Shown piece by piece: positions 31,546 through 45,611 of a stretch of DNA of 64,000 bases (position 1 is its first letter; every line of letters starts with the position of its first letter). Below the pieces are notes generated by a model that saw only the letters and a program-made list of their open reading frames with translations, was not told the DNA's origin and ran no database searches. This DNA is from Terrimicrobiaceae bacterium (GTDB lineage: Bacteria; Verrucomicrobiota; Verrucomicrobiia; Chthoniobacterales; Terrimicrobiaceae), in the NCBI GenBank assembly GCA_041746635.1, contig JBGTGQ010000034.1:17309-81308 (forward strand), read 5' to 3'. The position numbers and the translations under genes were made by a program.

Positions 31546-33459
31546 TTATTTTGCAATTGTTTCCGCGAAGCGTGCGGCCAGGCCGGCTGCATCCAGGCGA
31601 TAAAAAGCGAGGATTTCATCGTTCTGACCGCAGCGAGGAACGTCCTCCAACCCAATGGGTGTCCATTGGATTGGCAGACCAAGCCGGGCACAAGCGGCGG
31701 CGATTTTTTCCCCCTGCCCGCCGGCAATTAAATGGTTATCGAGGGTGATAACTTTTTTTGTGGAACCCACAGCCTTCTTGAGCCAATCGAGATCAATGCG
31801 ATTGAGCCAGGGTAGATTGATCAGCCGGACCTTCTTGCCATGCGAACTCTCCAGAGCCTTGGCCGCCTGCCAGGCTTCGGGAAGTAACACCGGGCCATAG
31901 CCGAATACAACCGCATCTTCTCCTTCGAGAAGCGTAACGCCCCGGCCTTTGATTATCTGATAATCCGAAGGCAACTCGAAGGGAATTGCCCGGGGAATGG
32001 AAACGAGGCGGAGATAGAAGTTTTCCTCCTGTCCGTTCACACAATAATCGAAAAGCAACTCGACTTCCCGTTCACAGGATGGCTCAGCCATGGCCAGACG
32101 GGCTATCCCGCCGACGGAACTGATATCCCGAACGCATTGGTGGGAATGCCCTGGTCCCGAAGGAAGCAGTCCAGCCAGCGAACCAGCATAGCCGACCTGG
32201 GTTCCCTCGGTGGCATTGTTGAAGATCTGCTCATTGGGCCGGGTCGAGAGAAAACAGGAGAACGAATGGACAATCGGCAGCAAGCCCTTCAAGGCCATTC
32301 CCCCCGCTTGGGAAACCATGTCCTGCTCCGCAATTCCGCATTCAAAGAAGCGTTCGGGGAAGCGCTTTTCAAATTCCAGCACACCGCAGTCCAGTGCCAG
32401 GTCACCGTCCAATGCGACAAGGTGCTCATTCTTTTCCGCTGCGGCGACCAAGGCACGAGAGTACGCCTCGATAAGTTTGTCCGGCTTCTCAGGCAGCACG
32501 CGTGTCGGACGTTCCTTGGTTTCGAGCGCCAACGGGGCGGCACCCAAAAGAGCAAGCTGGGCATTGGCAGAATCAATTAACTCTCCAAGCGCGGCCAGAT
32601 AGGTCGCCTGGTCCGGCGCGCCACTGTGAAACGAATAAAGCCGCGGATTTTTCATGGCAGCTGGTTCCATGAAGCTTACGCCGCACCCCTTCTTGGTATC
32701 CGCAATAAGCACCTTGGGCCGGTCGGCTATCGTTCTAAAACGCCCGAATACACCCGCCAGGGCTTCAAAATCATGACCGTCGCATCGGGCCACCTCCCAA
32801 CCGAACGCCTGAAATCTTGCTTCGAGGTTGCCCAAATCACTCACGTCCGTAACGAACGTGTCGGATTGAAGTTTATTGTGATCCACAATAACGGTGATTT
32901 CGCCGAGCTCGTCATTGGCGGCTGGCTGCAAGGATTCCCAAAACTGGCCCTCCTGCAACTCGCCGTCACCAGTCAGAACATAGATGGCTTGCTTGCGACC
33001 GTGCAGCCGGTTGGCGATGACCATGCCATGGGCCTTGGAAACCCCCATCCCCAGTGATCCCGTATTGGTTTGAACCTGAGGTATGGTTTTTACGTCCGGA
33101 TGCCCGGGCAGACCACCCAATCGGCGCAGCCTGTCGATTGACTCAAACGGGAGAATCCCCAATCCAATCATCACCGAATATAATCCGGGTGCATCATGTC
33201 CTTTGGAGGAAAAATAGATGTCGGAAACTGTACGCGGGTCAGCGGCGTTATCGCGTTGCAGCTCGTTGAGAAACAGCCAGGACACAATATCCATCGCGCT
33301 AAAACTGCTGCCCAAATGACCAGAGCCCGCCCGTGCGACCAGGGAGAGGGTGTTGATGCGGCAAGCCGTGGCGAAAAGTTGGGCTACCGGAATCGCCGGA
33401 CTCTGAGCGAGGATACGCTGCAATTCAGAAAAGGGCACATCGGAGAGGGTATTATTCAT
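31546..33459 (-). CDS. transketolase-family ThDP enzyme (N- and C-terminal halves fused, 637 aa)
   Basis: SGHLGSSFSAMDIV and GDGELQEGQFWES (ThDP/Mg site), then FECGIAEQDMVSQAGGMA (pyrimidine-binding domain). Confidence 0.85.
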   Translation of the reverse strand: MNNTLSDVPFSELQRILAQSPAIPVAQLFATACRINTLSLVARAGSGHLGSSFSAMDIVSWLFLNELQRDNAADPRTVSDIYFSSKGHDAPGLYSVMIGLGILPFESIDRLRRLGGLPGHPDVKTIPQVQTNTGSLGMGVSKAHGMVIANRLHGRKQAIYVLTGDGELQEGQFWESLQPAANDELGEITVIVDHNKLQSDTFVTDVSDLGNLEARFQAFGWEVARCDGHDFEALAGVFGRFRTIADRPKVLIADTKKGCGVSFMEPAAMKNPRLYSFHSGAPDQATYLAALGELIDSANAQLALLGAAPLALETKERPTRVLPEKPDKLIEAYSRALVAAAEKNEHLVALDGDLALDCGVLEFEKRFPERFFECGIAEQDMVSQAGGMALKGLLPIVHSFSCFLSTRPNEQIFNNATEGTQVGYAGSLAGLLPSGPGHSHQCVRDISSVGGIARLAMAEPSCEREVELLFDYCVNGQEENFYLRLVSIPRAIPFELPSDYQIIKGRGVTLLEGEDAVVFGYGPVLLPEAWQAAKALESSHGKKVRLINLPWLNRIDLDWLKKAVGSTKKVITLDNHLIAGGQGEKIAAACARLGLPIQWTPIGLEDVPRCGQNDEILAFYRLDAAGLAARFAETIAK

Positions 33460-33471
33460 CGGAAGCAGGTA

Positions 33472-34398
33472 TTAAAAAATGATGCGGCCGGTTTGGAGCG
33501 GGAATGACCTGCCTTTGCCGGAAATTGCGGAAAGTGAAAAGAAAACCAGATCTCCAAAAGTCGTCACCAAACGAAACACAAGCGCTGCCGAAAGCACAGC
33601 AGATTCGCCCATTTTTCCTCCAAGTAGAGCCACGAGGGTGACTTCTCGAATGCCTAAACCGCCTGGCGCGCCAGGTGTGATGAAGCCCGCGCTCCATGAA
33701 AACGCATAAGCTCCAATGATAAGCAGCCAATTTTTTGCCACAATGCTGTCGCTGCCTTCAAAAAAAGCGCAAATTCCAAGGAACAGGAGTGCGCTGATAA
33801 ACACATAAAGACTGTAGGCGACCTGCGCTTCAAGCAAACACCTCCATCGTTCAGGCGATATTATTTTCCGAATTCCTCTGTACCAAATAATCAAAGCCAT
33901 CGCAACAACGAGACAAAACCCGGCAGCGAGGTAAAAGAAAGATCGCGAACCTAGCTGGCCCAGAAGTGGAAGAGCATTAAGCGGAGTAAAGACACTCAAC
34001 ATACCTGCAAAGGCGAGAATCATTGCCATCTCGATTCCGGTCGCGCAGGCTAGCGCAGCATCCGAAATTCCTCTTTTGCGGGCGTGAACATGTCGGCTGG
34101 CCAGGTGAAAGATATTTCCTGGAAGATATTTGGCGATCTGAGTCTTCGCGTAGAGCCGCCACGCATGCGACCAGGAAAGTCTGTGCTTTTCAAGGCCGTT
34201 GAGAGTCATCCACCATCCCCGAGCCAGTAACATGTTCGCCATGGCATAAAAAATGGAAAATGCCGCCACCCCAACCAAAACCACCGGGCTCAGGGGTTTG
34301 CTAAAGATGGGGCCGGCATGATCCCGCAAGCGCCATCCGATAAAGCCAAGGCTTACAACTACAAGGATGCGACCAAACCAGCGGAGCAAGCCGTGCAT
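33472..34398 (-). CDS. flippase-like polytopic membrane protein (lysyl-PG synthase TM-region/UPF0104 family)
   Basis: About 8 hydrophobic helices and a C-terminal GAPGGLGIRE block typical of the family. The ATG at 34398 lies 2 nt after the upstream stop. Confidence 0.65.
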   Translation of the reverse strand: MHGLLRWFGRILVVVSLGFIGWRLRDHAGPIFSKPLSPVVLVGVAAFSIFYAMANMLLARGWWMTLNGLEKHRLSWSHAWRLYAKTQIAKYLPGNIFHLASRHVHARKRGISDAALACATGIEMAMILAFAGMLSVFTPLNALPLLGQLGSRSFFYLAAGFCLVVAMALIIWYRGIRKIISPERWRCLLEAQVAYSLYVFISALLFLGICAFFEGSDSIVAKNWLLIIGAYAFSWSAGFITPGAPGGLGIREVTLVALLGGKMGESAVLSAALVFRLVTTFGDLVFFSLSAISGKGRSFPLQTGRIIF

Positions 34399-34400
34399 AG

Positions 34401-35072
34401 CTATTGATTCCGCGCACGACAGAGCACCATGGTCCAGGGAAGCGGACGCTCGATTGCTTGAACGTGAAATTGCTCTTTCAAAAACCCTACAAAAGCTTTC
34501 GTTGACCAATGTTGAATATGGCCAGGTGTATTCCCTGCATTAGAGATATAAGCACCACGCATGAGGTTTAATATTCTCCATATCGGTTCGCGTGGAACGC
34601 TTATTAAGAGGTAAGGACGCGCCAAGGATGCGAGAATAGCGAGGGCCCGGGGGGGATCCACCAAGTGTTCCATCACCTCACAGCAGACAATCAAGGAGGC
34701 CGAGTCTTCAGAAGGCACCAAATCATAGATGCTCGCAGTCCGAAATGGGATGGTGAACCCGCGTGCGGCAGCATTTTCGCTGGCGATTTCAATCACCTCC
34801 GGCGCAATGTCAAAACTACGAACCGTCAAACCCATGTCAGCAAGCCGGAACGTCAGATTACCCTCCCCGCATCCTACTTCATGGGCATCGCGAGCTCCTG
34901 TTATTCTCACCAGTCTGTCAAAGGTTTTCAGAAATCGCCGCATCAGATGCTTTTCGATAATATTCCGGCTTTGATACTTGTCGTAGAAATTGCCCGCGGG
35001 CTGGATTTGAGATTTGTTCACTTGTCCGTTTTTTTCACTCCTTATCGCGAGGCGGTTCCAGCTCAAGAACAA
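34401..35072 (-). CDS. class I SAM-dependent methyltransferase
   Basis: EVGCGEGNLTFRLA (motif I) and CCEVMEHLVDP. An alternative GTG start at 35021 would avoid the 38-nt overlap with the upstream gene. Confidence 0.8.
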   Translation of the reverse strand: MFLSWNRLAIRSEKNGQVNKSQIQPAGNFYDKYQSRNIIEKHLMRRFLKTFDRLVRITGARDAHEVGCGEGNLTFRLADMGLTVRSFDIAPEVIEIASENAAARGFTIPFRTASIYDLVPSEDSASLIVCCEVMEHLVDPPRALAILASLARPYLLISVPREPIWRILNLMRGAYISNAGNTPGHIQHWSTKAFVGFLKEQFHVQAIERPLPWTMVLCRARNQ

Positions 35073-35601
35073 AGAGCTGGTTTACCCGAAACAGGAACCT
35101 TTTCATCCTTTCGATATGGAGGCCTGCTTGTAAGGCAACATCTCGCATTTTCACCTCGTCAAACAATATTTCGTGTTCATCGGCGGCATCCCGGCTAAAC
35201 AAACCGATGTGACTGCCTGCTCGGTGCACGGACTCCATACGAAGATGAGGTGTGGTCAAAACGATTTTGCCCTTGGGGGCTAGCCGGAGTTTCAATGATT
35301 CCAGCCACTCTATTGGATCCTTGACATGCTCGATGATTGCCAGTCCGACAATAGTGTCGAATTTTTCGTTAGCCGGCAGTTCGTTGGAGAAGCGACATTC
35401 GGGATGTCGTGTCCGCGCAACGGCAAGTGATTCCACATCGATATCTACACCACAATACCCGCGACACCCACACCATTTGGCGAGTTCTCCTGTGCCGCAA
35501 CCGACATCCAAAACCTGACCCTTGATATGGGGAAGAGCCGCATGAATGCGGGCCCGTCGGAGTAACGGTGAGAGGAGTCCTCCTGCAACTTGGTCAGGCA
35601 T
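35035..35601 (-). CDS. class I SAM-dependent methyltransferase
   Basis: VLDVGCGTGELAKW (motif I) and GLAIIEHVKDP. 1-nt TAATG overlap with the upstream GT2. Confidence 0.8.
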   Translation of the reverse strand: MPDQVAGGLLSPLLRRARIHAALPHIKGQVLDVGCGTGELAKWCGCRGYCGVDIDVESLAVARTRHPECRFSNELPANEKFDTIVGLAIIEHVKDPIEWLESLKLRLAPKGKIVLTTPHLRMESVHRAGSHIGLFSRDAADEHEILFDEVKMRDVALQAGLHIERMKRFLFRVNQLFVLELEPPRDKE

Positions 35602-36554
35602 TATTTGTTTTGATCATTTTCTTTGAGTTCAAAGAGCTGCAAGCGAATTTCTTCAAGCAGCCGCCGATTTACCGCTATAAGGTCTGCTAAAATTCCAGCC
35701 AGACACAGGAAAACCGCTATCGTGAGCAGGGCCGTTCCAATAGTAAGCGACTGAACAAATCCCGCGCCATATCCAGTTGCATATTTTAGCAAAAACCTGA
35801 AAATTAGGATCAGGCCAGGAATTCCGGTCACCGCGGCAACAACCAGGAAAAATCTTAGAGGGCGATAAATGGTATAAATTCGGATCATGGTAATCACAGA
35901 TCTCCGAACGTAATCACCCATGCTCTTGACCAGACGAGAGGGGCGAAGAGGCGTGTTCGTCCGTATCGGAACCGATACAACCCGCAGATTTTGCAGGCCT
36001 GCCTGAATAATGGTTTCAATCGTGTAGGTGTAGCGATTGTAGACAAACAATCTTTTGCCAGCCTCCCTGCTCACGGCCCGAAAACCGCTTGGGGCATCGA
36101 GAGTTGTCGTGTTACTTAAACGCCGAACCATCCAACTGCCAAAATATTGAAGTGCTTTTTTGATTTGGGAAAAATGCTCGATGTCTTGTATTGGCCGTGC
36201 GCCAATTACGATGTCCGCCTGGTTATTCATAATGGGATCAACCAGCTTTGCGATATCAGCCGAGACATATTGATTATCGGCATCGGTGTTGACGATAATA
36301 TCCGCTCCAAGTTCGAGTGCTTTCTTCAGTCCGGTGACATATGCCGCCGCCAGGCCGCGATTGCACGGGTGAACAACGATATGCTCAACGCCATTGGCAC
36401 GGGCGACCCCTGACGTCCCATCGCACGAGCCATCATCAATAACCAGCCACTCTAATTTAGAAATGCCAGGCAGAGTTTTTGGCAATTCTGATAGTACAAT
36501 CCCCAGCGTTTCCGCTTCATTGTAGCAGGGAATTTGGATAATTACATAAGACAT
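35601..36554 (-). CDS. membrane-anchored GT2, polyprenyl-phosphate sugar synthase type (GtrB/ArnC/DPM1-like)
   Basis: VIIQIPCYNEAETL...VIDDGSCDGT...NTDADNQY plus two C-terminal TM helices. ATG at 36554 (the longest ORF to 36617 overlaps the upstream gene). Confidence 0.8.
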   Translation of the reverse strand: MSYVIIQIPCYNEAETLGIVLSELPKTLPGISKLEWLVIDDGSCDGTSGVARANGVEHIVVHPCNRGLAAAYVTGLKKALELGADIIVNTDADNQYVSADIAKLVDPIMNNQADIVIGARPIQDIEHFSQIKKALQYFGSWMVRRLSNTTTLDAPSGFRAVSREAGKRLFVYNRYTYTIETIIQAGLQNLRVVSVPIRTNTPLRPSRLVKSMGDYVRRSVITMIRIYTIYRPLRFFLVVAAVTGIPGLILIFRFLLKYATGYGAGFVQSLTIGTALLTIAVFLCLAGILADLIAVNRRLLEEIRLQLFELKENDQNK

Positions 36555-36574
36555 GACTGACGTGACCTTCGGTT

Positions 36575-38974
36575 TTACTTCGGAATTAAGGAAATCGTCC
36601 AAGGGACTTCGAAACACATCACATTAGGGAAATCGTTATCTCCTTTAAGCATGAGGGAGACATTTTTATTAAAGTAAATTTTGCAGACTTGCAGCGCAAA
36701 ACTATCGCAAATTACTTCTTTTGGAATTACAAATTCAAGTTTGTCATTCTTTTGCAGAAATAGGATTTTCTGCGAGTTGCACGTAATTTTCGAAATCATC
36801 CCGGGCAAGAAGGACTTGTCCAACGGGATAATGACTTGAATATCTGTATAGACATCAGAAAGCAGGCCCCGTGGCAAAAAAAACAGAATACAATCGCGGG
36901 AATCCACGCTGGTCGGCCAGAGCTGATGAACTGTGGAGAAAGTCTCAATCGCCTTGGCGTTCAGCGTCATCAAGTCACGCCCAGGTTGTACGGAAATTCC
37001 GTAATCCTCTAGATTTTTTAAAAGAATAGCGTTTGGATTTCGCACATATATCGATTGCTTGGGTTGTAGTATTGTCCCCGGCAGCGGCAAAGCTGCTGAA
37101 GCATCCACTGCAGCGCTTTCCACAATCGCAGCATCTACCCGTCCCGATGCCAGCGATGATTTGATTTCATCCGGGCGCAAGAGAATATAAGAATAGCCGG
37201 GGAGCTCCCGCGGAAGGACGAAAGCCCACGAGTCGAGCCGACCGGAATAGCCTATCGATTTCCCGGGCGTTACCGCCGACTTCAATATGTCCACTTGCGA
37301 CATCCACCTGCCACCAAGATATAACTGCAACGGACTTCTGGTGTTTTTCGCTGCAAGAAAATGTGCCTTGCGAGAGGGCTCCAAGGCAATACAAAAGAGC
37401 ATAACCCAAAGAGCAAGCAACGAGCAAAATGTACAAAATATCGCGCGAGCCCAAGCCGGCGTGCAAAAAGCACAAATAACGGGCGGAACCAGAAGTGGAA
37501 TAAATTGAATTAAATACCTCGCGCGTGTCGGCCCCCAGGGTGCATTGAAACAGAATAGAATCAACGAAGACAACCCGAGAATGACTAAAGAAACTAACAA
37601 AAGATTTTCGAAATTGCGGGTACGAAAAAATCGGCGAAGACTGATTATTCCGACTATGGGTGCCGACAACAATATTAAGAAACCCAGAATGCCGTAGCCA
37701 GCCCTATTCTCATCTGTAAATAATTCTGTAAGATTACTGTCATTGTTAAATTTTGCTAGTTTATCTAGTCCGAGATTGATTTTTCGATCAATCGCCCATA
37801 TTATTTTCCGCTGAATGACAGGTCCGATTTCCGACGGCTTGGATTGTAGACCATGCCAGCTGAGTGTTTGGTAGGCTGACAGGACGATATTCGGCAGGGG
37901 TGAATAAACTTCTGGAGGCAACTTTGCCAAAATATTATTTGACGCTTCACTAAGCGCAAACGAACCGTGATCCTGAAAATTTTGCACATACCCGTATGAG
38001 CCCAAGAGGGCGGTGCCAATAGTTCCCGCAAGGAGAAGGCTTATAATCCTCGCGAGCCAGTTTTTCCAACCCAGAAAGACAAGTGTTCCGATTGAGAAAA
38101 TAGCCAACGCGGGTAAGGTCAAAAGAAAAGTCAACTTTGTTCCAACGCCTATACCAAGTGAGATTCCGGCACAAATTGATGAACGGCGCACGCAAGCTAT
38201 CCCGACTTTTGGATGAAGCGACTGCGCGAGGAAGACAACGCAGCTTACAATGAGACCTCCGACTATTAAGTCATTCCCTGACGTTCCCATTTGGTAAATT
38301 GTCGCGGGAAACCCGATGCAAATCACGGCTACACAGGTCGCGGCCAGCCTATTACCCGAACAAAGTATGGTCAAACGATAGACTCCCAGCGCGATCATGA
38401 TGGCCCCTAACACCTGGGGAAGGTGCATCCACTCGTAACCAATACCCAGTGCCATCATCCACATCAGAATAATTGAGGAATTCGGAGGGAATTCAGTCCA
38501 ACGGAAATCATCGATTGGAAGATAGTGGAGATTACCTTGCTGCAACCAATAGTAAGCTCGCGGCAAATGGTAGGATAGAGCATCCTTGTTCATCGAAGGG
38601 GCCGACCGGTAAAAATTAACATTGATAGCCAGCAGGATTATTACGGCGGCGACCAGTGCAAGCGTGATCCAGATGGTTTTTTGGCCCGGTTGGCCGAACT
38701 TTTGCCAAAAGCCAGCCAAGCCGGGCAACCCCGGTCTTCCCTTACGGTTCCAAACAAAGGCGGCAATTCCCACCATAACAAACTGTCCGAGGACGAGGGT
38801 TTTGGGGCTAATGCCGAAGGACTCGGAAAGGCAGAGGGCGAGAAGGATAATTTGCCCGAGGCCATAGTTGCAAAAGGCCAGCATATTCTCGGTGGCAGAT
38901 GGGAAAGGATACGCGGCAACTACCATCCATGAAGCGGCCAACAGCAAGCCCACTGCAAAAATAGTCATCATCAA
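36575..38974 (-). CDS. GT-C fold membrane glycosyltransferase (ArnT/PMT-like) with a C-terminal soluble domain of about 280 aa
   Basis: 799 aa with more than 10 predicted TM helices. Early loop DALSYHLPRAYYW. Sits directly after a polyprenyl-P sugar synthase gene. Markedly AT-richer DNA. Confidence 0.6.
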   Translation of the reverse strand: MMMTIFAVGLLLAASWMVVAAYPFPSATENMLAFCNYGLGQIILLALCLSESFGISPKTLVLGQFVMVGIAAFVWNRKGRPGLPGLAGFWQKFGQPGQKTIWITLALVAAVIILLAINVNFYRSAPSMNKDALSYHLPRAYYWLQQGNLHYLPIDDFRWTEFPPNSSIILMWMMALGIGYEWMHLPQVLGAIMIALGVYRLTILCSGNRLAATCVAVICIGFPATIYQMGTSGNDLIVGGLIVSCVVFLAQSLHPKVGIACVRRSSICAGISLGIGVGTKLTFLLTLPALAIFSIGTLVFLGWKNWLARIISLLLAGTIGTALLGSYGYVQNFQDHGSFALSEASNNILAKLPPEVYSPLPNIVLSAYQTLSWHGLQSKPSEIGPVIQRKIIWAIDRKINLGLDKLAKFNNDSNLTELFTDENRAGYGILGFLILLSAPIVGIISLRRFFRTRNFENLLLVSLVILGLSSLILFCFNAPWGPTRARYLIQFIPLLVPPVICAFCTPAWARAIFCTFCSLLALWVMLFCIALEPSRKAHFLAAKNTRSPLQLYLGGRWMSQVDILKSAVTPGKSIGYSGRLDSWAFVLPRELPGYSYILLRPDEIKSSLASGRVDAAIVESAAVDASAALPLPGTILQPKQSIYVRNPNAILLKNLEDYGISVQPGRDLMTLNAKAIETFSTVHQLWPTSVDSRDCILFFLPRGLLSDVYTDIQVIIPLDKSFLPGMISKITCNSQKILFLQKNDKLEFVIPKEVICDSFALQVCKIYFNKNVSLMLKGDNDFPNVMCFEVPWTISLIPK

Positions 38975-39199: not shown

Positions 39200-39526
39200 T
39201 CACTTGGCGGGGATTTTCACACCAGAAACAGGTTCGCCATCAATGTTGACGCCGGACACCTCTTTTCCGGTGGCCGACAATTTCAGAGTATCTTTCCGAC
39301 CGCTCGGCCAGATGATGGAAAATTCGTGCTTCGCTTCATCAATCCACTTCCAAGCTCCAATTTGTTTGTTATTTCCCCAGACAGTCAAATCCTCTTTCAG
39401 CTCGATTGTATCGTTATTGATCCATTTCCAAGAACCAACCGGGCTGCCTGGGGACGATGCTTGCACGTTCAACAAGGTGACAAAGAGAATGAGGAGGGCA
39501 GGGATAATGAGACGAGATTTTTTCAT
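39200..39526 (-). CDS. small secreted protein (signal peptide, internal WKWI repeat)
   Basis: MKKSRLIIPALLILFVTLLNVQA signal peptide. GSWKWINNDT / GAWKWIDEAK duplicated motif. Both antisense ORFs are low-complexity. Confidence 0.55.
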   Translation of the reverse strand: MKKSRLIIPALLILFVTLLNVQASSPGSPVGSWKWINNDTIELKEDLTVWGNNKQIGAWKWIDEAKHEFSIIWPSGRKDTLKLSATGKEVSGVNIDGEPVSGVKIPAK

Positions 39527-39633: not shown

Positions 39634-40404
39634 TTACACTGGGAGCTCGCCCGAAAAAGCTATGGCGTCAATGAGCGGGAGAGCGATCGTTTGATTCTCC
39701 AAAAGGTAGTTTACATACTGCCAATCGCCTTCATTGTTGACGTCAACCCCTTCGGAATCCCTAGTCAAAAACGGACAGACGGTATTTCCCGATATAGTCC
39801 CCGATTCAAGCACTCTGCTCCACGCGATCTCCAGGCTGGCATTTTGTACATAGACTTCGGGCAGAGCCGCGTATTGAGAACTATGCCAGGGCGTTTCGCC
39901 GTTGAAGTACGGCAAAATGGGCGTCATGATACTCCCGCGAATCACCCACATTTTTCCTGGATGCTGGGCGCATTTTTCCACCGCCCGCAGGGAATCGATG
40001 CCCTCTTGGGCCAGAAACTCAGCCCAAGCCCGTCGAATGGTTTCCGGAAGACGAAAGGGACTTGTCGGCCGAAGGATGCTGAAGCAATCGAAATGCCGTT
40101 CCTCTTGGGCAAAACTCTGCAAGGCGTGCCCGATCCACTCAACATCGGGCGATCTGTCGCCGGAAAACTCCGCTGGGCGCAAGAAGGGAACTTCGGCGCC
40201 GTAGTGGCGGGCGATTTCCGCGTACTGGGCCGAATCGGTTGAGACCACCACCCGCTGGAAGATGCCGGAATCGATGGCGGCGCGGATGGTGTAGGCGATC
40301 ATCGGATGACCGCGGAGGGGGCGGATATTTTTGTCCGTTACGCGTTTCGAGCCCGAACGCGCCGGGATGAGGGCGATGGCGGCGGGGGACAAGGGATTCG
40401 GCAT
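39634..40404 (-). CDS. acylneuraminate (nonulosonate) cytidylyltransferase
   Basis: IALIPARSGSKRVTDKNIRPLRGHPMIAYTI... and LRPTSPFR, the CMP-sugar synthetase (NeuA/KdsB superfamily) signatures. Confidence 0.8.
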   Translation of the reverse strand: MPNPLSPAAIALIPARSGSKRVTDKNIRPLRGHPMIAYTIRAAIDSGIFQRVVVSTDSAQYAEIARHYGAEVPFLRPAEFSGDRSPDVEWIGHALQSFAQEERHFDCFSILRPTSPFRLPETIRRAWAEFLAQEGIDSLRAVEKCAQHPGKMWVIRGSIMTPILPYFNGETPWHSSQYAALPEVYVQNASLEIAWSRVLESGTISGNTVCPFLTRDSEGVDVNNEGDWQYVNYLLENQTIALPLIDAIAFSGELPV

Positions 40405-40417
40405 GGAGGAAACTTAG

Positions 40418-41605
40418 TTAACGACAGGAGATCTCGTGCGCTTTTTGACAAATGGCAATGAACCGTTGGGCATAGAATCTTCCGCGTTTGGTGTTTTCGG
40501 CGAGCAGGGTGGCGGTATCGATTTCCGCAGGTTTGGCCGCCACGATTTCCTGCCATTTCGCACGCAGCGCATCGGCCAGAGAGCTGGAGTTCCCGTCGCG
40601 AAAAAAGAGCCCCTCGGGGGGAGCCTGCTCCCGGTGCGTGGCGATATCGGATAGGACAATGGGCTTATGCAGGGTGCGCGCCTCCTCGACCGTAGTGCTC
40701 CAGCCTTCAAAACGGGAGGGTTGTACCAGTAGAGCGGCTTGACGATAGACTTGGATCTGTTCCCGGCGTGGAACGATGCCCAGAAAAGTGATTTGGCTTT
40801 CGAGATTCAGGGCTTTGATTTTTGCGATCATGGCCTGTCGGAATTCGTCGGTTCGATAATCTTCCAGAGATCCGGTGCTGACCAAGGGGATCACAAGACC
40901 CTGTTCTTTCAGTTGGGCCAGCGCATCGAAAAGCACATCGTGGCCCTTGTGCTGCCACATTTGATTCGCGCAATATAAAAACCGTTGCGGCAGCCGCCGA
41001 TGCTCCAGGGCCTGGCACGGATCGGGGGCAAGGTCGGACTCTTCCATGATTGCGTGGAAGGAAAGCACCTCGACCGGCAGATGCCGGAAGTTGGGAAAAA
41101 AAGTATGAAAATCCTTCCGGGCGGACTCGCTGCTTAGAACGAGAAGGCGGCACGATTGGAGTAGCTGATCGTAGCCGGCATCGCGCTGATTGCGTTCCTC
41201 CAAGGTAAAATATTCGGGATAATGTTTGTATTGAAAGTCCGGTATCCAATGGATCGCCAGCGGGTGCGCGGCGGCATCGCCGCCTTTCTGAGGGAAGGCC
41301 ACGGTGCAGTCATCAGAGAGCCACCCCGTGGCCATTCCATCCTGCTTGGTCCATCGAGCGGTCATCCGATCGACCCGGACTATTTCGGATTCCCTGACCA
41401 GGGCTTCCAGACCGGTCACATCCCGCTTGCGTGAGACCCGCAAAAAGACAGGCGGACACTTTTTGGGCGAAATCATGTTTAACGCCAGGATCAGGTTTCG
41501 GGCATATTGGGCCCCGCCCAGCCAGTGGGAATCACCAGTGAGATAGAGAAGAATACCCATGGGCTTTTCCGGCCGGCGAAAAATCTTCCTGAAAAACTCT
41601 TTCAT
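40418..41605 (-). CDS. glycosyltransferase family 4 (paralogue of 30319..31509)
   Basis: RFEGWSTTVEEARTLHKPIVLSDIATHREQAP. ATG at 41605 (MKEFF...). The upstream 83 codons overlap the methyltransferase gene. Confidence 0.8.
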   Translation of the reverse strand: MKEFFRKIFRRPEKPMGILLYLTGDSHWLGGAQYARNLILALNMISPKKCPPVFLRVSRKRDVTGLEALVRESEIVRVDRMTARWTKQDGMATGWLSDDCTVAFPQKGGDAAAHPLAIHWIPDFQYKHYPEYFTLEERNQRDAGYDQLLQSCRLLVLSSESARKDFHTFFPNFRHLPVEVLSFHAIMEESDLAPDPCQALEHRRLPQRFLYCANQMWQHKGHDVLFDALAQLKEQGLVIPLVSTGSLEDYRTDEFRQAMIAKIKALNLESQITFLGIVPRREQIQVYRQAALLVQPSRFEGWSTTVEEARTLHKPIVLSDIATHREQAPPEGLFFRDGNSSSLADALRAKWQEIVAAKPAEIDTATLLAENTKRGRFYAQRFIAICQKAHEISCR

Positions 41606-41630
41606 CAACAAGTGTGCGCGGGAAACCGAC

Positions 41631-42398
41631 TCAGAGACGCTGACGGATGGCAAAACCGATCCCGTAGCCCAGTTCAGAAAAGCGATAGCAGGTGAAGCGC
41701 TGGTCGCTCTCCACCACTGACTTCCAAACTTCGACAAGGTGGGGATGCTTGCGGTGGGCAATATCATCGAACACCAATGCACCGCCCACGGACACCCGCG
41801 GCAAAACCTCCCTGAGATCCTGGGCCGCGCCTTCCGCCGTGTGATCCCCATCAACCGTTACAATGTCAAAATAGAGGTCGGGATTCGCATCCAGATGCTT
41901 TTGCAGAACCTGATGGGAGTCGCCAATAACGAAATGACGCTCGCCTTTGTGACCAACCCGTTCCAGTTCCCTGCGGACGAGGTCCGGACCGGGATTCTCC
42001 ATATCCGCATAATTTTTTTTCTTCCACCGATCCAGCAAGGTCAGCTCACAACGCGGTGCAAACCTTCCCACTGCGCAGGCGCTCCGGCCCCGCCGGACCC
42101 CGATCTCCAGATAGGTCCGCGGCTTCAAGAGCTCGGCCAGGGTAACCAAAACTGTGATGATATCCGCATATTTCCACTTCTTCCCGAAGCGTTTGAGGCC
42201 GGCATCGTAATAGCCCTTCAAATAGAGAGTGTAGTCGTCATCCGATAATAACCCATAAAGCTTTCGCGCTTTGACCACCTGCTCGGCATTTAAGAGCACC
42301 GAGGAGATGGTGTTGATCCCGATGATCGTCGGGTCATAATAATCAGACCCGGCTTTTTCAGGAAGGAAGGTCGTAAAGGGATTGTAGATGGGACTCAT
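41631..42398 (-). CDS. class I SAM-dependent methyltransferase (Methyltransf_24-like)
   Basis: LEIGVRRGRSA...VTVDGDHTAEGAAQDL...GGALVFDDI. Confidence 0.7.
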   Translation of the reverse strand: MSPIYNPFTTFLPEKAGSDYYDPTIIGINTISSVLLNAEQVVKARKLYGLLSDDDYTLYLKGYYDAGLKRFGKKWKYADIITVLVTLAELLKPRTYLEIGVRRGRSACAVGRFAPRCELTLLDRWKKKNYADMENPGPDLVRRELERVGHKGERHFVIGDSHQVLQKHLDANPDLYFDIVTVDGDHTAEGAAQDLREVLPRVSVGGALVFDDIAHRKHPHLVEVWKSVVESDQRFTCYRFSELGYGIGFAIRQRL

Positions 42399-42430
42399 GA
42401 ATTTCTGTAAGATGGGATAATGTGAACTGA

Positions 42431-43138
42431 TTAAAGAGTTCTCACGGAGAGAGGGGCATGTGAATAGGCCACTGAGTCAGCAGGAACGTCCTTGGTTACG
42501 ACAGAACCGGCCCCGACAATGCTGTGATCCCCGATCGTGCACCCCTTGAAGATGAATGCTCCGGCGGCAATCCAGCAATAGTCCCCGATCGAAATGGGCG
42601 CGGAGCTGATGCGGGGAACGGGGGCTTTGACTTTCCTGATCATGCAATCAAGCTCGGTTTGGCGAAGAGTCCAGTCCTTGTGATGCGTATCATTATCGTA
42701 GAGATTTACATCATGGGCAATCATGACACCGGTGCCGATTTCAATGTGGTTGACGCTATAAATGATCGTATTGTCGCCGATGTAAACGCCCTCGCCTATG
42801 TGAATTTTTCCCCCGCGGCTGGCATGCAGAATGCCACGGACAATGCTGTTGGCCCCGATCGTGACGTTTTCCGGGGGACCGTCGTTGTTAATCTGGAAGC
42901 CGTAACCAAGGCGCACAGTGGGATCAAGCTGGCACTGGCTAGCCGCCCGTTTCCAAATCATTCTTCCAAACACAGAGGATACCTTATGCAGCAAGTGCCG
43001 CAGTAAGGAATCCAGCCAGCCTCCGGCCTCCGCGTCCTTTGCCTCAATCAACGCCCCGCTGCCAAAGGCGTGGGAAAACGCCTTGAGAAGCTGGGTATCC
43101 CGACAGGGCGAAGCCGGAGGTTTCGGCGGGGGCTTCAT
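42431..43138 (-). CDS. hexapeptide-repeat acyl/acetyltransferase
   Basis: Beta-helix repeats (IGANSIVRGIL..., IGDYCWIAAGAFIFKGCTIGDHSIVGAGSVVTKDVP). Confidence 0.8.
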   Translation of the reverse strand: MKPPPKPPASPCRDTQLLKAFSHAFGSGALIEAKDAEAGGWLDSLLRHLLHKVSSVFGRMIWKRAASQCQLDPTVRLGYGFQINNDGPPENVTIGANSIVRGILHASRGGKIHIGEGVYIGDNTIIYSVNHIEIGTGVMIAHDVNLYDNDTHHKDWTLRQTELDCMIRKVKAPVPRISSAPISIGDYCWIAAGAFIFKGCTIGDHSIVGAGSVVTKDVPADSVAYSHAPLSVRTL

Positions 43139-43180
43139 GAGCGGAGGCGCTTTTTGCCGTATGCGGACATCCTATCCATT

Positions 43181-44656
43181 TTAGATAGTGCTGGCACTTA
43201 GCGTGGAAAAATAGAGGTCCTTAAGGTTGGAGTAGATATCAAGGGCCTCGCAGCCTGGCTCCCGGCTGCCGTTGCCCGATGCTTTGACGCCGCCAAAGGG
43301 CATGTGCGGCTCGCTTCCATAGGTTCCCGCGTTGACCACTGCCACGCCCGATTCCACCAGCCGCGTGAACTCCATGGCGCGATCGAAGTTCTTCGTATGG
43401 ATGCAAGCGGTCAGTCCGTAAGGAGACTTATTAGCCAGACTAAGGGCTTCCGCGAAACCGGACACCTTGTAAAGGCAGGCCACCGGCCCAAATAATTCAT
43501 GCTGGGAAATTTCGGCGTCCGGGTGCGCATTCTCAAGGAAGGTCGGTGCCATATAGAAACCGGAGGCATGTCCGGGACCAGTCAGGCGGTTTCCTCCGGT
43601 CAAAACCGTGGCACCTTCCAGCCGAGCCTTGCCCACCGCATCGAGCATGCGTTGAAGCTGGCGGGCGTTGATCACAGGACCAAAGTCGTCCGCATCGTCG
43701 GGACCCACTTTTTGCGTTTCCGCGCCCTTCACGAGTTTCTCGCGCAGGGCCTCGTAAATTGAATCGAAAATGATGATACGGCTGGCGGCGGCACAGCGCT
43801 GGCCGGCGTTGCTGAACGCAGATAACAAAATCCACTTGGCGGCATTATCCAGGTCGGCATCGTCACAGACGACGAGGGGGTTTTTGCCACCCAATTCCAA
43901 GGAAACCTTGGCCAGCCGGCGACCGGCCACCTCAGCAATAAGCCTTCCGACCGCGGAGGATCCGGTGAAACTAATCACGCCGACCCGTTCATCGGCAACC
44001 AAGGCCGCGCCTGCTTCCACTCCCAAACCTTGCATAATATTCAAGACGCCATCCGGCAATCCGGCGGCCTTGGCAAGGCGCGCGAAAACAATCGCGGTGG
44101 CCGGTGTATCTTCAGCCGCCTTGAGCACGGCCGTATTTCCGCAAATCAGTGCCGGAAAAACCTTCCAAGCCACGTTTGCAATCGGCGTATTGGCGGCAAT
44201 GATCAGTCCGGCCAGGCCAACGGGCTGACGAACGGTCATGGCCCACTTATTGGGCGTTCCGCTGGTGGTTGTTTTGCCGTAAAGGCGCTGACCTTCGCCT
44301 GCGTAGAAAAATCCCAAGGCGGCCGCGCCTTCGACTTCTCCCAAGGCATTGGCTAAGGACTTGCCGGTTTCAAGCGCCACGATACGGGCCACTTCTTCCC
44401 GGTGGTCGAGCAAGGCGGCGGCAATCCCGCGAAGGATATCGCCCCGTTTGACAGCGGGCACTTCGGCCCAAGCCGGTTGGACACTCCGCGCTGTCTCGAT
44501 GGCGGCTGAAACATCCTGGGCATCGGATCGCGACACCTCGAACAACACGGTGCCATCGTGAGGATTGAGTTTTTCCAGAATCCTTCCCTTTAGGGCAGCC
44601 TGCTCTTTTCCTGCGATGAAGTTTAAAACTTCCTTGAAACTCGTAAGATCGTTCAT
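43181..44656 (-). CDS. NAD(P)-dependent aldehyde dehydrogenase
   Basis: FTGSSAVG, SLELGGKNP and SNAGQRCAA (catalytic Cys) motifs. ATG at 44656 (MNDLTSFKE). The longer ORF overlaps the upstream gene. Confidence 0.85.
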   Translation of the reverse strand: MNDLTSFKEVLNFIAGKEQAALKGRILEKLNPHDGTVLFEVSRSDAQDVSAAIETARSVQPAWAEVPAVKRGDILRGIAAALLDHREEVARIVALETGKSLANALGEVEGAAALGFFYAGEGQRLYGKTTTSGTPNKWAMTVRQPVGLAGLIIAANTPIANVAWKVFPALICGNTAVLKAAEDTPATAIVFARLAKAAGLPDGVLNIMQGLGVEAGAALVADERVGVISFTGSSAVGRLIAEVAGRRLAKVSLELGGKNPLVVCDDADLDNAAKWILLSAFSNAGQRCAAASRIIIFDSIYEALREKLVKGAETQKVGPDDADDFGPVINARQLQRMLDAVGKARLEGATVLTGGNRLTGPGHASGFYMAPTFLENAHPDAEISQHELFGPVACLYKVSGFAEALSLANKSPYGLTACIHTKNFDRAMEFTRLVESGVAVVNAGTYGSEPHMPFGGVKASGNGSREPGCEALDIYSNLKDLYFSTLSASTI

Positions 44657-44669
44657 TGGTAGATAGCTA

Positions 44670-45611
44670 TCAGTGATTCCCTGCCCTTGAGAACTCGGAT
44701 TTCCAATCCAAAGCACATTCCGCCACAGCGTGGGCCAGCGCTGGGGCTTTGAGCGGGCCGGCCAATTGTTCCAACAGCGTCGTGTCAGCCCTCCACCGAA
44801 CCGGATCCCCCGGAGGAGAGCTGTCCGCAACTTTCAGCGGCTTGGAACACCCGACAGCATCCATGACCTGCCGGGCCAGTTCAGCGACGGAAGTTTCCAC
44901 ACCGCTGGCAAGATTCACGGCGGTGAACCGGCCCGGCAAGGAGGGATTTTCCATAAGTCGGAACAGCCGCTCCATGCAGTCCCGGACAGGCAGGTAATCC
45001 CGCGTCTCTTCTCCCGTCCCATGGATGACCAATTGCGGGTCGTCCGCAAGCACCCGCTGCACCAGCTCCCACAAAAGAAGCCGACGTTGCTCGCGGCCGA
45101 AAACAGAAAACAGCCTCACCGCCAGGACGGAGATGCCATAACAGACATTAAACTCCCGCGCCAGAAGCTCGCAAGCCAGTTTGTGAAAACCATACGGCGA
45201 GATGGGCTGGAGGGGGGCATCTTCCGCAATCGGAAGAGTCGGGGGGTTGCCATAGACAGCGGCGCTGGAGGGGAAAACAACCAGGGCTTGTGATTTCGCC
45301 TCGCGAACTCCTTCCAGGAGATTGGCAAAAGTAAGAACTGAGGCCTTGAGGTCATCCAGGGGGGATAACAAGGAGCGTCCCACCGAGGCCGAACCGGCGG
45401 CATGAACCACCACATCCGGCGCAAAGTCTTCGATGATTGGGGACAGCCGCGACGTGGCCACGTCAACACTGAGGTACTCGTACTCGCCCGTCATTTTCAA
45501 GGAGGGCTGAGCGGAACGGGCCAGGCCGAGAACGTCGTGTCCTCGCGCAGACGCATCCGCGGCCACACTTCCGCCCACGAATCCGCCGCAGCCGGTAACG
45601 AGAATTTTCAT
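44670..45611 (-). CDS. NAD-dependent sugar epimerase/dehydratase (SDR)
   Basis: MKILVTGCGGFVGG and SPYGFHK (YxxxK). ATGA overlap at 45608-45611. Confidence 0.85.
   Translation of the reverse strand: MKILVTGCGGFVGGSVAADASARGHDVLGLARSAQPSLKMTGEYEYLSVDVATSRLSPIIEDFAPDVVVHAAGSASVGRSLLSPLDDLKASVLTFANLLEGVREAKSQALVVFPSSAAVYGNPPTLPIAEDAPLQPISPYGFHKLACELLAREFNVCYGISVLAVRLFSVFGREQRRLLLWELVQRVLADDPQLVIHGTGEETRDYLPVRDCMERLFRLMENPSLPGRFTAVNLASGVETSVAELARQVMDAVGCSKPLKVADSSPPGDPVRWRADTTLLEQLAGPLKAPALAHAVAECALDWKSEFSRAGNH

Follow-up and report, generated by a model that had tools for sequence, protein, structure and literature searches.

The window analysed here is a 64,000-nucleotide stretch of contig JBGTGQ010000034.1 from a Terrimicrobiaceae bacterium. 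Five consecutive genes occupy positions 33472-38974 of this stretch, all on the minus strand, within a Verrucomicrobiota surface-polysaccharide locus. An initial annotation had described them as encoding a GT2 enzyme, a GT-C-like protein, a UPF0104 protein and two methyltransferases, and all five are present. They are closely packed, the gaps measuring 20, -1, ~13, 2 and 12 nt. The neighbouring genes encode Wzm, a Wzt with Wzt_C repeats, NeuB, a cytidylyltransferase, a KpsS/C-like protein and many GT2 and GT4 enzymes.

The GT2 gene (35601-36617, minus strand) encodes a glycosyltransferase of the polyprenyl-phosphate type (GtrB/DPMS/ArnC-like; PF00535, 69.5 bits), with a likely true start at ATG 36554 giving 317 aa. 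The protein holds a DAD motif (TDADNQ) and ends in two TM helices (~254-272 and 298-316). It scores 87.7 bits against AglJ and 78.3 bits against PpgS, each under the model's own cut-off, and its best PDB matches are DPMS (5mlz, 9.8e-12) and ArnC (9bhc). Two soluble class I SAM methyltransferases follow. MT2 (35035-35601, minus strand; 188 aa; PF13489, 69 bits) has a start codon overlapping the GT2 stop by one base. MT1 (34401-35072, minus strand; PF13649 and PF08241, ~52 bits) likely starts at GTG 35021, giving ~206 aa. Both match generic class I models only.

The 798/799-aa protein (36575-38974, minus strand) is assigned as a divergent GT-C glycosyltransferase from an AlphaFold model and family profiles. 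A TTG start yields 799 aa and ATG 38971 yields 798 aa. The protein has ~12-14 TM helices, of which three extra N-terminal ones precede the GT-C core, and a periplasmic tail of ~265 aa made up of a C-terminal alpha/beta plus beta-sandwich domain. This soluble tail had been singled out as notable; it is indeed there, but such C-terminal domains are common among GT-C enzymes. Searches of Pfam and NCBIfam returned no match for the protein, and no curated GT-C model matched it directly. The AF2 model (pLDDT 84.3, pTM 0.80) has AglB, ArnT, EmbA/B, Pmt4, STT3, AftA/B and PimE as its best Foldseek matches, all at probability 1.00, whilst the profile matched a single sequence profile, that of ArnT (5ezm), and weakly (E 0.012). 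A ligase or polymerase identity was rejected, WaaL appearing merely at rank 38 with probability 0.47. Thus the 799-aa protein is a GT-C enzyme by its predicted fold, as first suggested. The PMT_2 search proposed at the outset failed for the window protein itself, but PF13231 is matched by 25 of 34 representatives of its family, which comprises 7347 representative clusters at E<=1e-3. Across 34 divergent members D131, R139, W172, G278, K280, N332 and G428 are invariant, D131 sitting in the first outward loop. Distant relatives (24-28% identity) are found in unrelated gene contexts.

The fifth gene encodes a divergent UPF0104/LPG_synthase_TM protein of 308 aa (33472-34398, minus strand). The ORF was called as 33472-34509, but translation almost certainly begins at ATG 34398, two bases past the MT1 stop. 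The family assignment anticipated by the initial annotation is borne out, albeit marginally, by PF03706 (33.9-34.4 bits against a cut-off of 33.4), which 18 of the 24 members of the protein's subfamily match. With the AF2 model (pLDDT 86.8), Foldseek returned Pseudomonas aeruginosa MprF alone at probability 1.00 (TMq 0.54), the next match having a probability of 0.35. On the strength of this model the protein is a candidate flippase for a lipid-linked sugar. A gene for a UPF0104-Methyltransf_23 fusion lies elsewhere in the genome (G000:C81:12248-13954), and no GtrA-family gene (PF04138) was found in this genome or its genus. The replacement of GtrA by UPF0104, flagged earlier as remarkable, is thus real here, yet the idea is not new. 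COG0392 is titled 'Predicted membrane flippase AglD2/YbhN', and an earlier study predicted a role for UPF0104 as a glycosylation flippase and noted archaeal UPF0104 genes next to GT-C-like and AglD-like ones (Makarova 2015, PMC5898192). In the literature consulted, reported flippase activity in the UPF0104 family is that of the MprF domain only, on phospholipids, GpgF being a prediction only.

Recurrence of the block in other genomes

The genes of the block occur together elsewhere, in several phyla, as the initial annotation had envisaged. GT2 and MT1 form a fixed pair, with identities of 50-58%, in Alpha- and Gammaproteobacteria, Actinomycetota and other Verrucomicrobiota; behind the pair there is usually a UPF0104 protein of the same subfamily and then a variable large polytopic protein. 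In two Terrimicrobiaceae loci (L007, L002) and two from Rhodospirillales (L003, L010) the order is GTC-GT2-(MT2)-MT1-AsnB. L011 and L013 carry GT2 (51%)-MT1 (48-50%)-UPF0104 (45-49%), with a polytopic protein of 724 aa next in line in L011, and L012 carries GT2-MT-UPF0104-PMT_2 adjoining Wza/Wzc. The arrangement is Wzm-Wzt-GT2 (57%)-MT1 (55%)-UPF0104-PMT_2 in Mesorhizobium (L021), GT2 (58%)-MT1 (55%)-MT2 (48%)-UPF0104-like-722 aa in a gammaproteobacterial MAG (L023) and GT2-MT1-576 aa in Solirubrobacterales (L022). Other Verrucomicrobiota (L025, L026, L028) show GT2-MT1, GT2-MT1-UPF0104 and MT1-UPF0104.

The window GT2 shares 50-76% identity with its counterpart in each of the related modules. 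MT1, with homologs across phyla at 53-60% identity (2234 proteins at E<=1e-3), stands directly behind GT2 or GT2-MT2 wherever a locus shows the upstream side, and is the constant partner of the GT2. MT2 is an optional member, with orthologs (48-72%) in L003, L007, L010 and L023 and none at L002, L011, L013, L021 or L022.

An AsnB-like gene fills the exact UPF0104 slot in the closest relatives, and the window block is therefore a mosaic: its GTC-GT2-MT2-MT1 portion resembles the AsnB-ending block of these relatives, whilst its UPF0104 protein resembles that of GT2-MT1-UPF0104 blocks elsewhere, its closest homologs and subfamily members being housed in GT2-MT-UPF0104 blocks. Since the relatives keep GTC-GT2-MT without this UPF0104 protein, either it is dispensable or another paralog substitutes. 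Relative to the nearest relative the synthase and methyltransferases are 70-76% identical and the GT-C far more diverged (50-52%), and in other lineages the GT-C is exchanged for unrelated polytopic proteins. Directly upstream of the GT-C gene lies a gene for a small protein of 108 aa with a signal peptide (39200-39526, minus strand); a Pfam search with it gave no match, and a 56% identical ortholog holds the equivalent position in L007. It is possibly a periplasmic accessory, its membership of the module being uncertain.

A probable decoration pathway and its alternatives

Considering the folds and families of the parts together with their recurrent association, we regard it as probable that the block encodes a four- or five-component version of a periplasmic ('three-component') glycan-decoration pathway within a Wzm/Wzt-dependent surface-polysaccharide locus. 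At the cytoplasmic face the GT2 would load polyprenyl phosphate with a single sugar taken from its nucleotide-linked form, a step suggested by its homology to DPMS, ArnC, AglJ and PpgS and by its two C-terminal TM helices. MT1, here with MT2, would then O- or N-methylate the sugar, most likely when lipid-linked, as the invariant GT2-MT1 adjacency across phyla and the UPF0104-methyltransferase fusion in the same genome imply. The UPF0104 protein, with its MprF flippase fold, would carry the lipid-linked sugar to the periplasmic leaflet, where the GT-C would hand it to an acceptor by means of the invariant Asp of the first outward loop, its periplasmic C-terminal domain probably holding the acceptor. 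To judge from context only, the likeliest acceptor is the polymer that the neighbouring Wzm/Wzt exports. Several points weigh against this pathway: the UPF0104 match is marginal (34 bits against 33.4), the nearest relatives have AsnB in its place, the GT-C matches no curated model directly and has relatives in unrelated contexts, the methyltransferase matches are generic, and UPF0104 flippase activity is reported, in the literature consulted, for the MprF domain and phospholipid substrates alone.

The role of the methyltransferases is where another reading fares best, although we think it unlikely. They could act on a nucleotide-sugar precursor, or cap the cytoplasmic polymer end for the carbohydrate-binding domains of Wzt. 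ABC-dependent O antigens are known to carry chain-terminating methyl caps that Wzt_C domains recognise (PMC11127046), the Wzt of this locus has such repeats, and generic family matches would suit either role. However, MT1 is tied to a DPMS-like GT2 (50-58%) with or without ABC exporters in at least four phyla, and the UPF0104-fused methyltransferase of this genome speaks for a membrane-lipid substrate. Action on the nucleotide-sugar precursor keeps some probability.

Somewhat less probable is that the same pathway serves another acceptor, either lipid A/core, in the manner of ArnT or Rgt, or envelope proteins through PMT-like O-glycosylation. The transitive relationship of the GT-C family to PMT_2/PMT, the presence of ArnT both among the best structural matches and as the only sequence-profile match, and the occurrence of the module in L011, L013 and L022 with no visible exporter would all fit. 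Against this, an ABC-exporter glycan locus contains or directly adjoins the block both in the window and in Mesorhizobium, that of L012 adjoins Wza/Wzc, and fast diversification of the GT-C is typical for serotype-specific glycan transferases.

We give still less credence to membrane-lipid modification, in which GT2, MT and UPF0104 proteins would make and flip a methylated glycolipid as an outer-leaflet end product and the GT-C would be only loosely associated. The literature consulted ties UPF0104 proteins to phospholipids, for MprF and, by prediction, for GpgF and HexF, and GT2-MT1-UPF0104 occurs in L011 and L013 without a recognisable GT-C model. Yet the GT2 is nearest to polyprenyl-phosphate glycosyltransferases (DPMS, ArnC, AglJ, PpgS) and shares their two-TM C-terminal anchor; a large polytopic protein with a soluble tail stands behind the trio in the window, L011, L012, L021, L022 and L023; and a lipid-linked donor is exactly what a GT-C enzyme needs.

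Base composition and mobility

The block has a GC content of 48.9% against 58.9% for the genome (z = -4.6), a value equalled in only 0.35% of all 5.5-kb windows of the genome. The composition is thus not uniform, and the low GC reported earlier is real, although the spot values then quoted (40-45% against 67%) were local extremes which overstated the contrast. Its extent was also drawn too narrowly: positions 33472-38974 are low, but the dip runs on over the small secreted-protein gene to ~39.6 kb. GC3 is 0.48-0.53 for the five genes and 0.60-0.66 for the flanks, and the genes for the two soluble methyltransferases are as low in GC as those for the membrane proteins.

Distribution is patchy. 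Of 41 related genomes, two carry the GT-C and one the UPF0104 ortholog; across the phylum, 5 of 301 genomes have MT1. On a Rhodospirillales contig the block is compositionally foreign too, with GC3 of 0.55-0.72 against 0.81-0.90 for the flanks. The TK and cytidylyltransferase of the locus are missing from two same-genus genomes, and the whole locus is accessory. Vertical inheritance, with low GC due to local constraint or ordinary glycan-locus variability, is very unlikely: the entire 28-62 kb locus is somewhat GC-poor, a same-genus relative carries the block at the matching site and the GT2/MT identities (70-76%) approach those of some flanking genes (74-79%), but block GC3 of 0.48-0.53 compares with 0.64-0.73 in the L007 orthologs whereas the flanks differ by only ~0.06, nucleotide identity falls from 77% in the flanks to 66-69% across the block, 40 relatives contain nothing equivalent to the UPF0104 gene, the locus is missing from two same-genus genomes, and close homologs of the block are foreign in composition in Rhodospirillales. 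Patchy presence and foreign composition therefore support the proposal that the block is horizontally mobile; the further idea of a single acquired module does not stand, as the five genes are not one unit.

Comparison with known systems

Flippase classes differ among three-component systems (PMC11127046). The Citrobacter youngae O1/O2 pentofuranose system (Kelly et al. 2024, PMC11127046) likewise decorates an ABC-transporter-dependent O antigen after polymerisation and uses a non-GtrA flippase, there a MATE protein; its GT-C founded GT136. It differs in having a phosphoribosyl-type donor synthase, no methyltransferase and a flippase of another family. In archaea, arCOG00899 (UPF0104), arCOG00563 (PMT/STT3-like) and arCOG00897 (AglD-like GT2) form a matching family trio, predicted to make, flip and transfer, and AglD with a fused UPF0104 domain occurs there (Makarova et al. 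2015, PMC5898192). That trio, also a prediction, concerns dolichol and S-layer N-glycans, and no conserved methyltransferase partner was reported (PMC5898192).

As in the Arn pathway (ArnC, ArnD, ArnE/F, ArnT), a GT2 would load undecaprenyl phosphate, the lipid-linked sugar would be tailored at the cytoplasmic face before flipping and a PMT_2-type GT-C would transfer it; the window proteins have ArnT and ArnC among their best matches by structure or sequence. The Arn tailoring enzyme, ArnD, deformylates the lipid-linked sugar. In the window the tailoring is putatively methylation, the flippase would be a UPF0104 protein rather than an SMR pair and the probable acceptor is a polysaccharide instead of lipid A. 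The MprF flippase domain and the P. aeruginosa GpgSDF operon (PMC12713373) share the UPF0104 fold and the theme of making a modified lipid in the cytoplasm and then flipping it, but they act on phospholipids, with the flipped lipid as the end product, whereas the window encodes a GT-C consumer.

The Gtr systems of Shigella and Salmonella O-antigen glucosylation (GtrA/GtrB/Gtr*; PMC11127046, PMC8035078) also combine a polyprenyl-P-sugar synthase, a C-terminally TM-anchored GT2, with a flippase and with a type-specific GT-C that works once export has taken place. The window module differs in lacking a GtrA-family protein, its flippase candidate being of the UPF0104/MprF type; in the one or two methyltransferases that are fixed partners of its synthase; and in a GT-C branch which falls outside all curated models and carries three additional TM helices at its N-terminus. 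A conserved synthase alongside a highly variable GT-C is common to the two. As in Gtr systems, conserved synthase and methyltransferases beside a diverging GT-C fit a common unit for making the donor, paired with a transferase specific to each type. The block is probably a known kind of system whose unusual parts recur together in several phyla.

Organisation, composition and distribution of the block

Five minus-strand genes at 33472-38974 encode, in the order of transcription, a 799-aa GT-C protein, a GT2 glycosyltransferase, two class I SAM methyltransferases (MT2 and MT1) and a UPF0104 protein. The intergenic gaps are 20, -1, ~13 and 2 nt, and a transketolase-like gene adjoins the block at a further 12 nt. 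Comparison with homologs indicated that the ORF-list starts were too long in three of the genes; the UPF0104 gene (33472-34398, minus strand, 308 aa) starts at ATG 34398, GT2 (minus strand, 317 aa) at ATG 36554 and MT1 (minus strand) probably at GTG 35021. Promoter and terminator scans gave counts no higher than chance level. The block is embedded in a long co-directional glycan locus encoding Wzm, Wzt with Wzt_C repeats, NeuB, a PseF-like cytidylyltransferase, a KpsS/C-like protein, a sulfotransferase and many GT2 and GT4 enzymes. On this gene content, the polymer is judged to be ABC-transporter-dependent. Within the locus, the low-GC block separates the transketolase-like gene (31546-33459) from the cytidylyltransferase, an aldehyde dehydrogenase and other genes (39634-45611), a split also found in L007, a Terrimicrobiaceae-like contig.

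The composition of the block is anomalous for its genome (3.48 Mb, 102 contigs), with a GC content of 48.9% versus 58.9%. The 5.5-kb windows of the whole genome average 0.589 (sd 0.022); relative to them the block has z = -4.6, and only 0.35% of windows reach so low a value. All five genes, with the soluble methyltransferases no exception, have a GC3 of 0.48-0.53, as compared with 0.60-0.66 in the flanking genes. The low-GC character proposed in the initial annotation is thus real, although the spot values quoted there exaggerated the contrast. The low-GC stretch reaches ~39.6 kb, across a gene for a small secreted protein of 108 aa with a duplicated W-K-W motif (39200-39526, minus strand), which lies 225 nt upstream of the GT-C gene and has an ortholog, 56% identical, at the equivalent position in L007. 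This gene was considered as a hidden GtrA and rejected, its product being secreted, non-membrane and without a family match.

The distribution of the block is sparse. The GT-C protein was found in two of 41 related genomes, this one and another of the same genus (G002), the UPF0104 ortholog in one of the 41, and MT1, in a phylum-wide sample of 301 genomes, in five that belong to different families. The two other same-genus genomes further lack the transketolase and cytidylyltransferase of the locus. Together, distribution and composition support a mobile, accessory module, in keeping with the horizontal acquisition suggested at the outset.

The synthase, the transferase and the candidate flippase

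GT2 matches PF00535 at 69.5 bits and carries a DXD-type motif, DAD (TDADNQ). Its GT-A catalytic domain is followed by a C-terminal hairpin of TM helices at ~254-272 and ~298-316, and its closest solved structures are the Pyrococcus dolichol-phosphate mannose synthase (DPMS, 5mlz) and ArnC (9bhc). The best curated matches, AglJ (87.7 bits versus a cut-off of 325) and PpgS (78.3 versus 370), are below the equivalog thresholds, as is ArnC (29.5 versus 529). GT2 thus appears to be a polyprenyl-phosphate glycosyltransferase of the GtrB/DPMS/ArnC/AglJ/PpgS type, with no equivalog match naming its sugar.

The 799-aa protein has no match in Pfam or NCBIfam, even at E<=1 and with PF13231 (PMT_2) and PF02366 (PMT) included, and a phmmer search against PDB sequences was empty. 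With direct sequence searches failing, it was identified by fold search and transitive profile evidence only. An AlphaFold (AF2) model built from 14 homologs (pLDDT 84.3, pTM 0.80) was matched by Foldseek to AglB, ArnT (TMt 0.55), EmbA/B, Pmt4, STT3, AftA/B, PimE and ALG enzymes in the PDB, at probabilities of 0.98-1.00. Every match that reached probability 1.00 is a GT-C enzyme. The modelled protein has a polytopic membrane core of the GT-C fold (GT-C_A; PMT_2/ArnT/PMT-related), as had been proposed from the sequence. An O-antigen ligase or polymerase, the alternative raised for this protein, is dismissed by the same searches: it has no Pfam match, and WaaL (7tpg) appears only at rank 38 (probability 0.47, TMq 0.16).

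PF13231 is matched by 25/34 sampled members of the family and PF02366 by 7/34, so that the window protein is linked to these curated models only transitively. From 1.84 billion representatives, the family profile retrieved 7347 clusters at E<=1e-3, of which 478 reach E<=1e-30. It aligns weakly with ArnT (E 0.012) around a conserved N234-D235, the nearly invariant D235 being aligned with an ArnT Asp. Across the 34 members, which are 18-27% identical to the window protein, D131, R139, W172, G278, K280, N332 and G428 are invariant. D131 (motif NKDALSYHLPRAYYW) comes directly after the TM helix at 98-124, and this conserved acidic residue probably lies in the first extracytoplasmic loop, helix order and positive-inside charges pointing to the periplasmic side. 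The catalytic acid of GT-C enzymes sits in the corresponding loop.

The canonical core is preceded by three TM helices; most family matches begin at profile positions 1-10, so that these helices are conserved across the family. The last ~265 residues are modelled as an alpha/beta plus beta-sandwich domain, which helix count and positive-inside charges would place in the periplasm. This domain is found in ~30 of the best 150 representatives, the other tails being different. Chains of GH86 and GH156 enzymes also gave local Foldseek matches, ~130 columns long, that are assumed to fall within it. The predicted donor of the enzyme is a polyprenyl-phosphate-linked sugar, as suggested by the adjoining DPMS-like GT2.

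The UPF0104 protein passes PF03706 marginally, at 33.9-34.4 bits against a gathering score of 33.4; 18/24 members of its subfamily match this model, with a best E of 8e-15. Four other, canonical UPF0104 paralogs in the genome score 120-133 bits. Foldseek matched the AF2 model (pLDDT 86.8) with confidence only to three MprF structures from P. aeruginosa (TMq 0.49-0.54, all at probability 1.00), and the best match after these had a probability of 0.35. A sequence profile of the subfamily searched against PDB sequences found nothing, MprF included. On its model, the protein is predicted to have the fold of the MprF membrane (flippase) domain. Translocation of a polyprenyl-phosphate sugar by this protein is a prediction, as is the flippase role of UPF0104 proteins outside MprF in the literature. 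COG0392 is named for this predicted role, and UPF0104 proteins, predicted as glycosylation flippases, were noted in archaea in 2015 beside PMT/STT3-like and AglD-like genes (PMC5898192). The GtrA family (PF04138) is absent from this genome and from three other same-genus genomes, and across the genus the picture is the same, with canonical UPF0104 paralogs present and GtrA absent. The presence of a UPF0104 protein in place of GtrA, which had been remarked on earlier, is borne out by the lack of PF04138. Elsewhere in the genome (contig C81, 72799-77010), a radical SAM/SPASM gene precedes a UPF0104 paralog, and the gene after this paralog encodes a membrane protein of 593 aa that has a soluble tail and gives no Pfam match.

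Constant and exchangeable parts of related loci

The closest relative of the block is found in L007, where synteny spans the whole locus and flanking proteins are 74-93% identical. GT2 (76%), MT2 (72%) and MT1 (70%) are well conserved between the two, and GT-C is only 50-52% identical. In a tree of close homologs, GT-C falls into several deep lineages at ~50% identity, with the window protein alone on a long branch. The combination of a conserved GT2 with a diverged GT-C on its own deep branch is what would be expected if a conserved unit makes the donor for a type-specific transferase. In L007 (6006-12433), as in L008 and L009, there are two GT-C paralogs, ~50% identical to each other, separated by a transposase gene of the ISL3 family that was called in two pieces; this identifies the site as a hot spot of recombination.

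The exact slot of the UPF0104 gene, at 33472-34398 in the window, is occupied in L007 by a gene for a 634-aa AsnB-like glutamine amidotransferase. Such a gene lies between MT1 and the next gene in L007 (14566-16470), in a second Terrimicrobiaceae locus (L002, 7823-9727) and in a Rhodospirillales locus (L010, 14814-16508), and in the sampled loci it never occurs together with this UPF0104. Nucleotide homology between the window and L007 ends within the 3' end of MT1 and returns at the transketolase start codon. A Rhodospirillales MAG has the order GTC-GT2-MT2-MT1-AsnB at 41-60% identity, and there too GC3 in the block (0.55-0.72) is far under that of the host (0.81-0.90). The window block is AT-richer and more diverged than the L007 copy, and the central cassette looks to have been replaced, with UPF0104 coming in for AsnB.

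The closest homologs of the window UPF0104 are 39-49% identical. Of the loci that carry them, L011 and L013 have the order GT2 (51%)-MT1 (48-50%)-UPF0104, followed in L011 by a 724-aa protein with ~10 TM helices and a soluble tail, and L012 has GT2-MT-UPF0104-PMT_2 adjoining Wza/Wzc. In Mesorhizobium sp. (GCA_004021855.1; L021, 3383-9164), Wzm, Wzt, GT2 (57%), MT1 (55%), UPF0104 and PMT_2 are encoded in a row. A gammaproteobacterial MAG (L023) has GT2 (58%)-MT1 (55%)-MT2 (48%)-UPF0104-like followed by a 722-aa protein, a Solirubrobacterales MAG (L022) has GT2-MT1 followed by a 576-aa protein, and other families of Verrucomicrobiota have GT2-MT1, GT2-MT1-UPF0104 or MT1-UPF0104. Related blocks thus occur in Verrucomicrobiota, Alpha- and Gammaproteobacteria and Actinomycetota. 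Across the compared loci GT2-MT1 is invariant, MT2 is optional, the usual third gene is a UPF0104 of the window's subfamily and the large polytopic protein is interchangeable.

Among the polytopic partners compared with the window GT-C family, the Mesorhizobium PMT_2 protein is the only one to match it (E 5.6e-8). The 724-, 722- and 576-aa proteins and the 593-aa protein of contig C81 showed no significant relation to it by hhalign and HMM searches; therefore their GT-C nature is suggested by architecture only. Distant relatives of the window GT-C, at 24-28% identity, displayed no conserved module context.

A putative pathway and its methylation step

MT1 and MT2 are soluble and match only generic class I methyltransferase models; neither was linked to a characterised enzyme. 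MT1 belongs to a large family in which 53-60% identity is kept across phyla. Methylation may, less probably, take place at the precursor level, before the sugar is lipid-linked. The lipid-linked stage is suggested because the adjacency of GT2 and MT1 is fixed and because the same genome encodes a UPF0104-Methyltransf_23 fusion, an argument from guilt by association and not proof. The fusion, a 568-aa protein outside the window (contig C81, 12248-13954), joins a canonical UPF0104/LPG_synthase_TM domain (129.5 bits) to a C-terminal Methyltransf_23 domain (55 bits) that is 27% identical to MT2. UPF0104-methyltransferase fusions are also listed in the PplT preprint.

In the favoured reading, with methylation placed at the lipid-linked stage, GT2 would make a polyprenyl-phosphate sugar, MT1, here with MT2, would methylate it, UPF0104 would flip the methylated lipid-linked sugar, and GT-C would transfer it in the periplasm, probably onto the Wzm/Wzt-exported polymer. 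As in Gtr-type three-component systems, a synthase, a flippase candidate and a GT-C are encoded together, and a conserved synthase is paired with a type-specific GT-C; in contrast to them, a GtrA-family flippase is absent. The module thus works like a Gtr system without being a canonical member, and the Gtr-like reading of the initial annotation holds on each test it had named, namely composition, GT-C versus ligase or polymerase, and co-occurrence. Periplasmic glycosylation by three-component systems is well established, with flippases of different classes, among them GtrA/SMR and MATE types (PMC11127046). No paper was found on a bacterial GT2-MT-UPF0104-GT-C cassette, nor on any methyltransferase-linked three-component system, in a literature search of limited coverage in which absence is not proof. 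What is most novel is that the lipid-sugar synthase has a conserved methyltransferase partner. To our knowledge, methylation of the polyprenyl-phosphate-bound sugar is undocumented for bacterial three-component systems.

A broader reading, speculative and perhaps doubtful, is that GT2-MT1-UPF0104 constitutes a widespread, undescribed donor cassette. A polyprenyl-phosphate-bound sugar would be methylated, flipped by a dedicated UPF0104 subfamily and consumed by interchangeable, type-specific GT-Cs, making the cassette a general supplier of O-methylated side branches for ABC-exported O antigens; the exchange of AsnB for UPF0104 would then represent a second flavour, with an amidated sugar. This reading spans at least Verrucomicrobiota, Alpha- and Gammaproteobacteria and Actinomycetota, including cultured Mesorhizobium and, by MT1 homologs, Rhizobium. 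Because the Mesorhizobium assembly has the cassette next to wzm/wzt, genetics and LPS chemistry may offer a direct test of the hypothesis. How the surface glycans of bacteria are decorated after export determines serotype, phage receptors and recognition by the immune system. Should the reading be right, a large class of bacterial modules for periplasmic glycosylation would routinely rely on an MprF-type UPF0104 protein as flippase, the lipid-sugar synthase would have a specific family of methyltransferases as its partner, and a large branch of GT-C enzymes, represented by the 7347 clusters and by a window protein without a direct Pfam match, would be escaping current family models.
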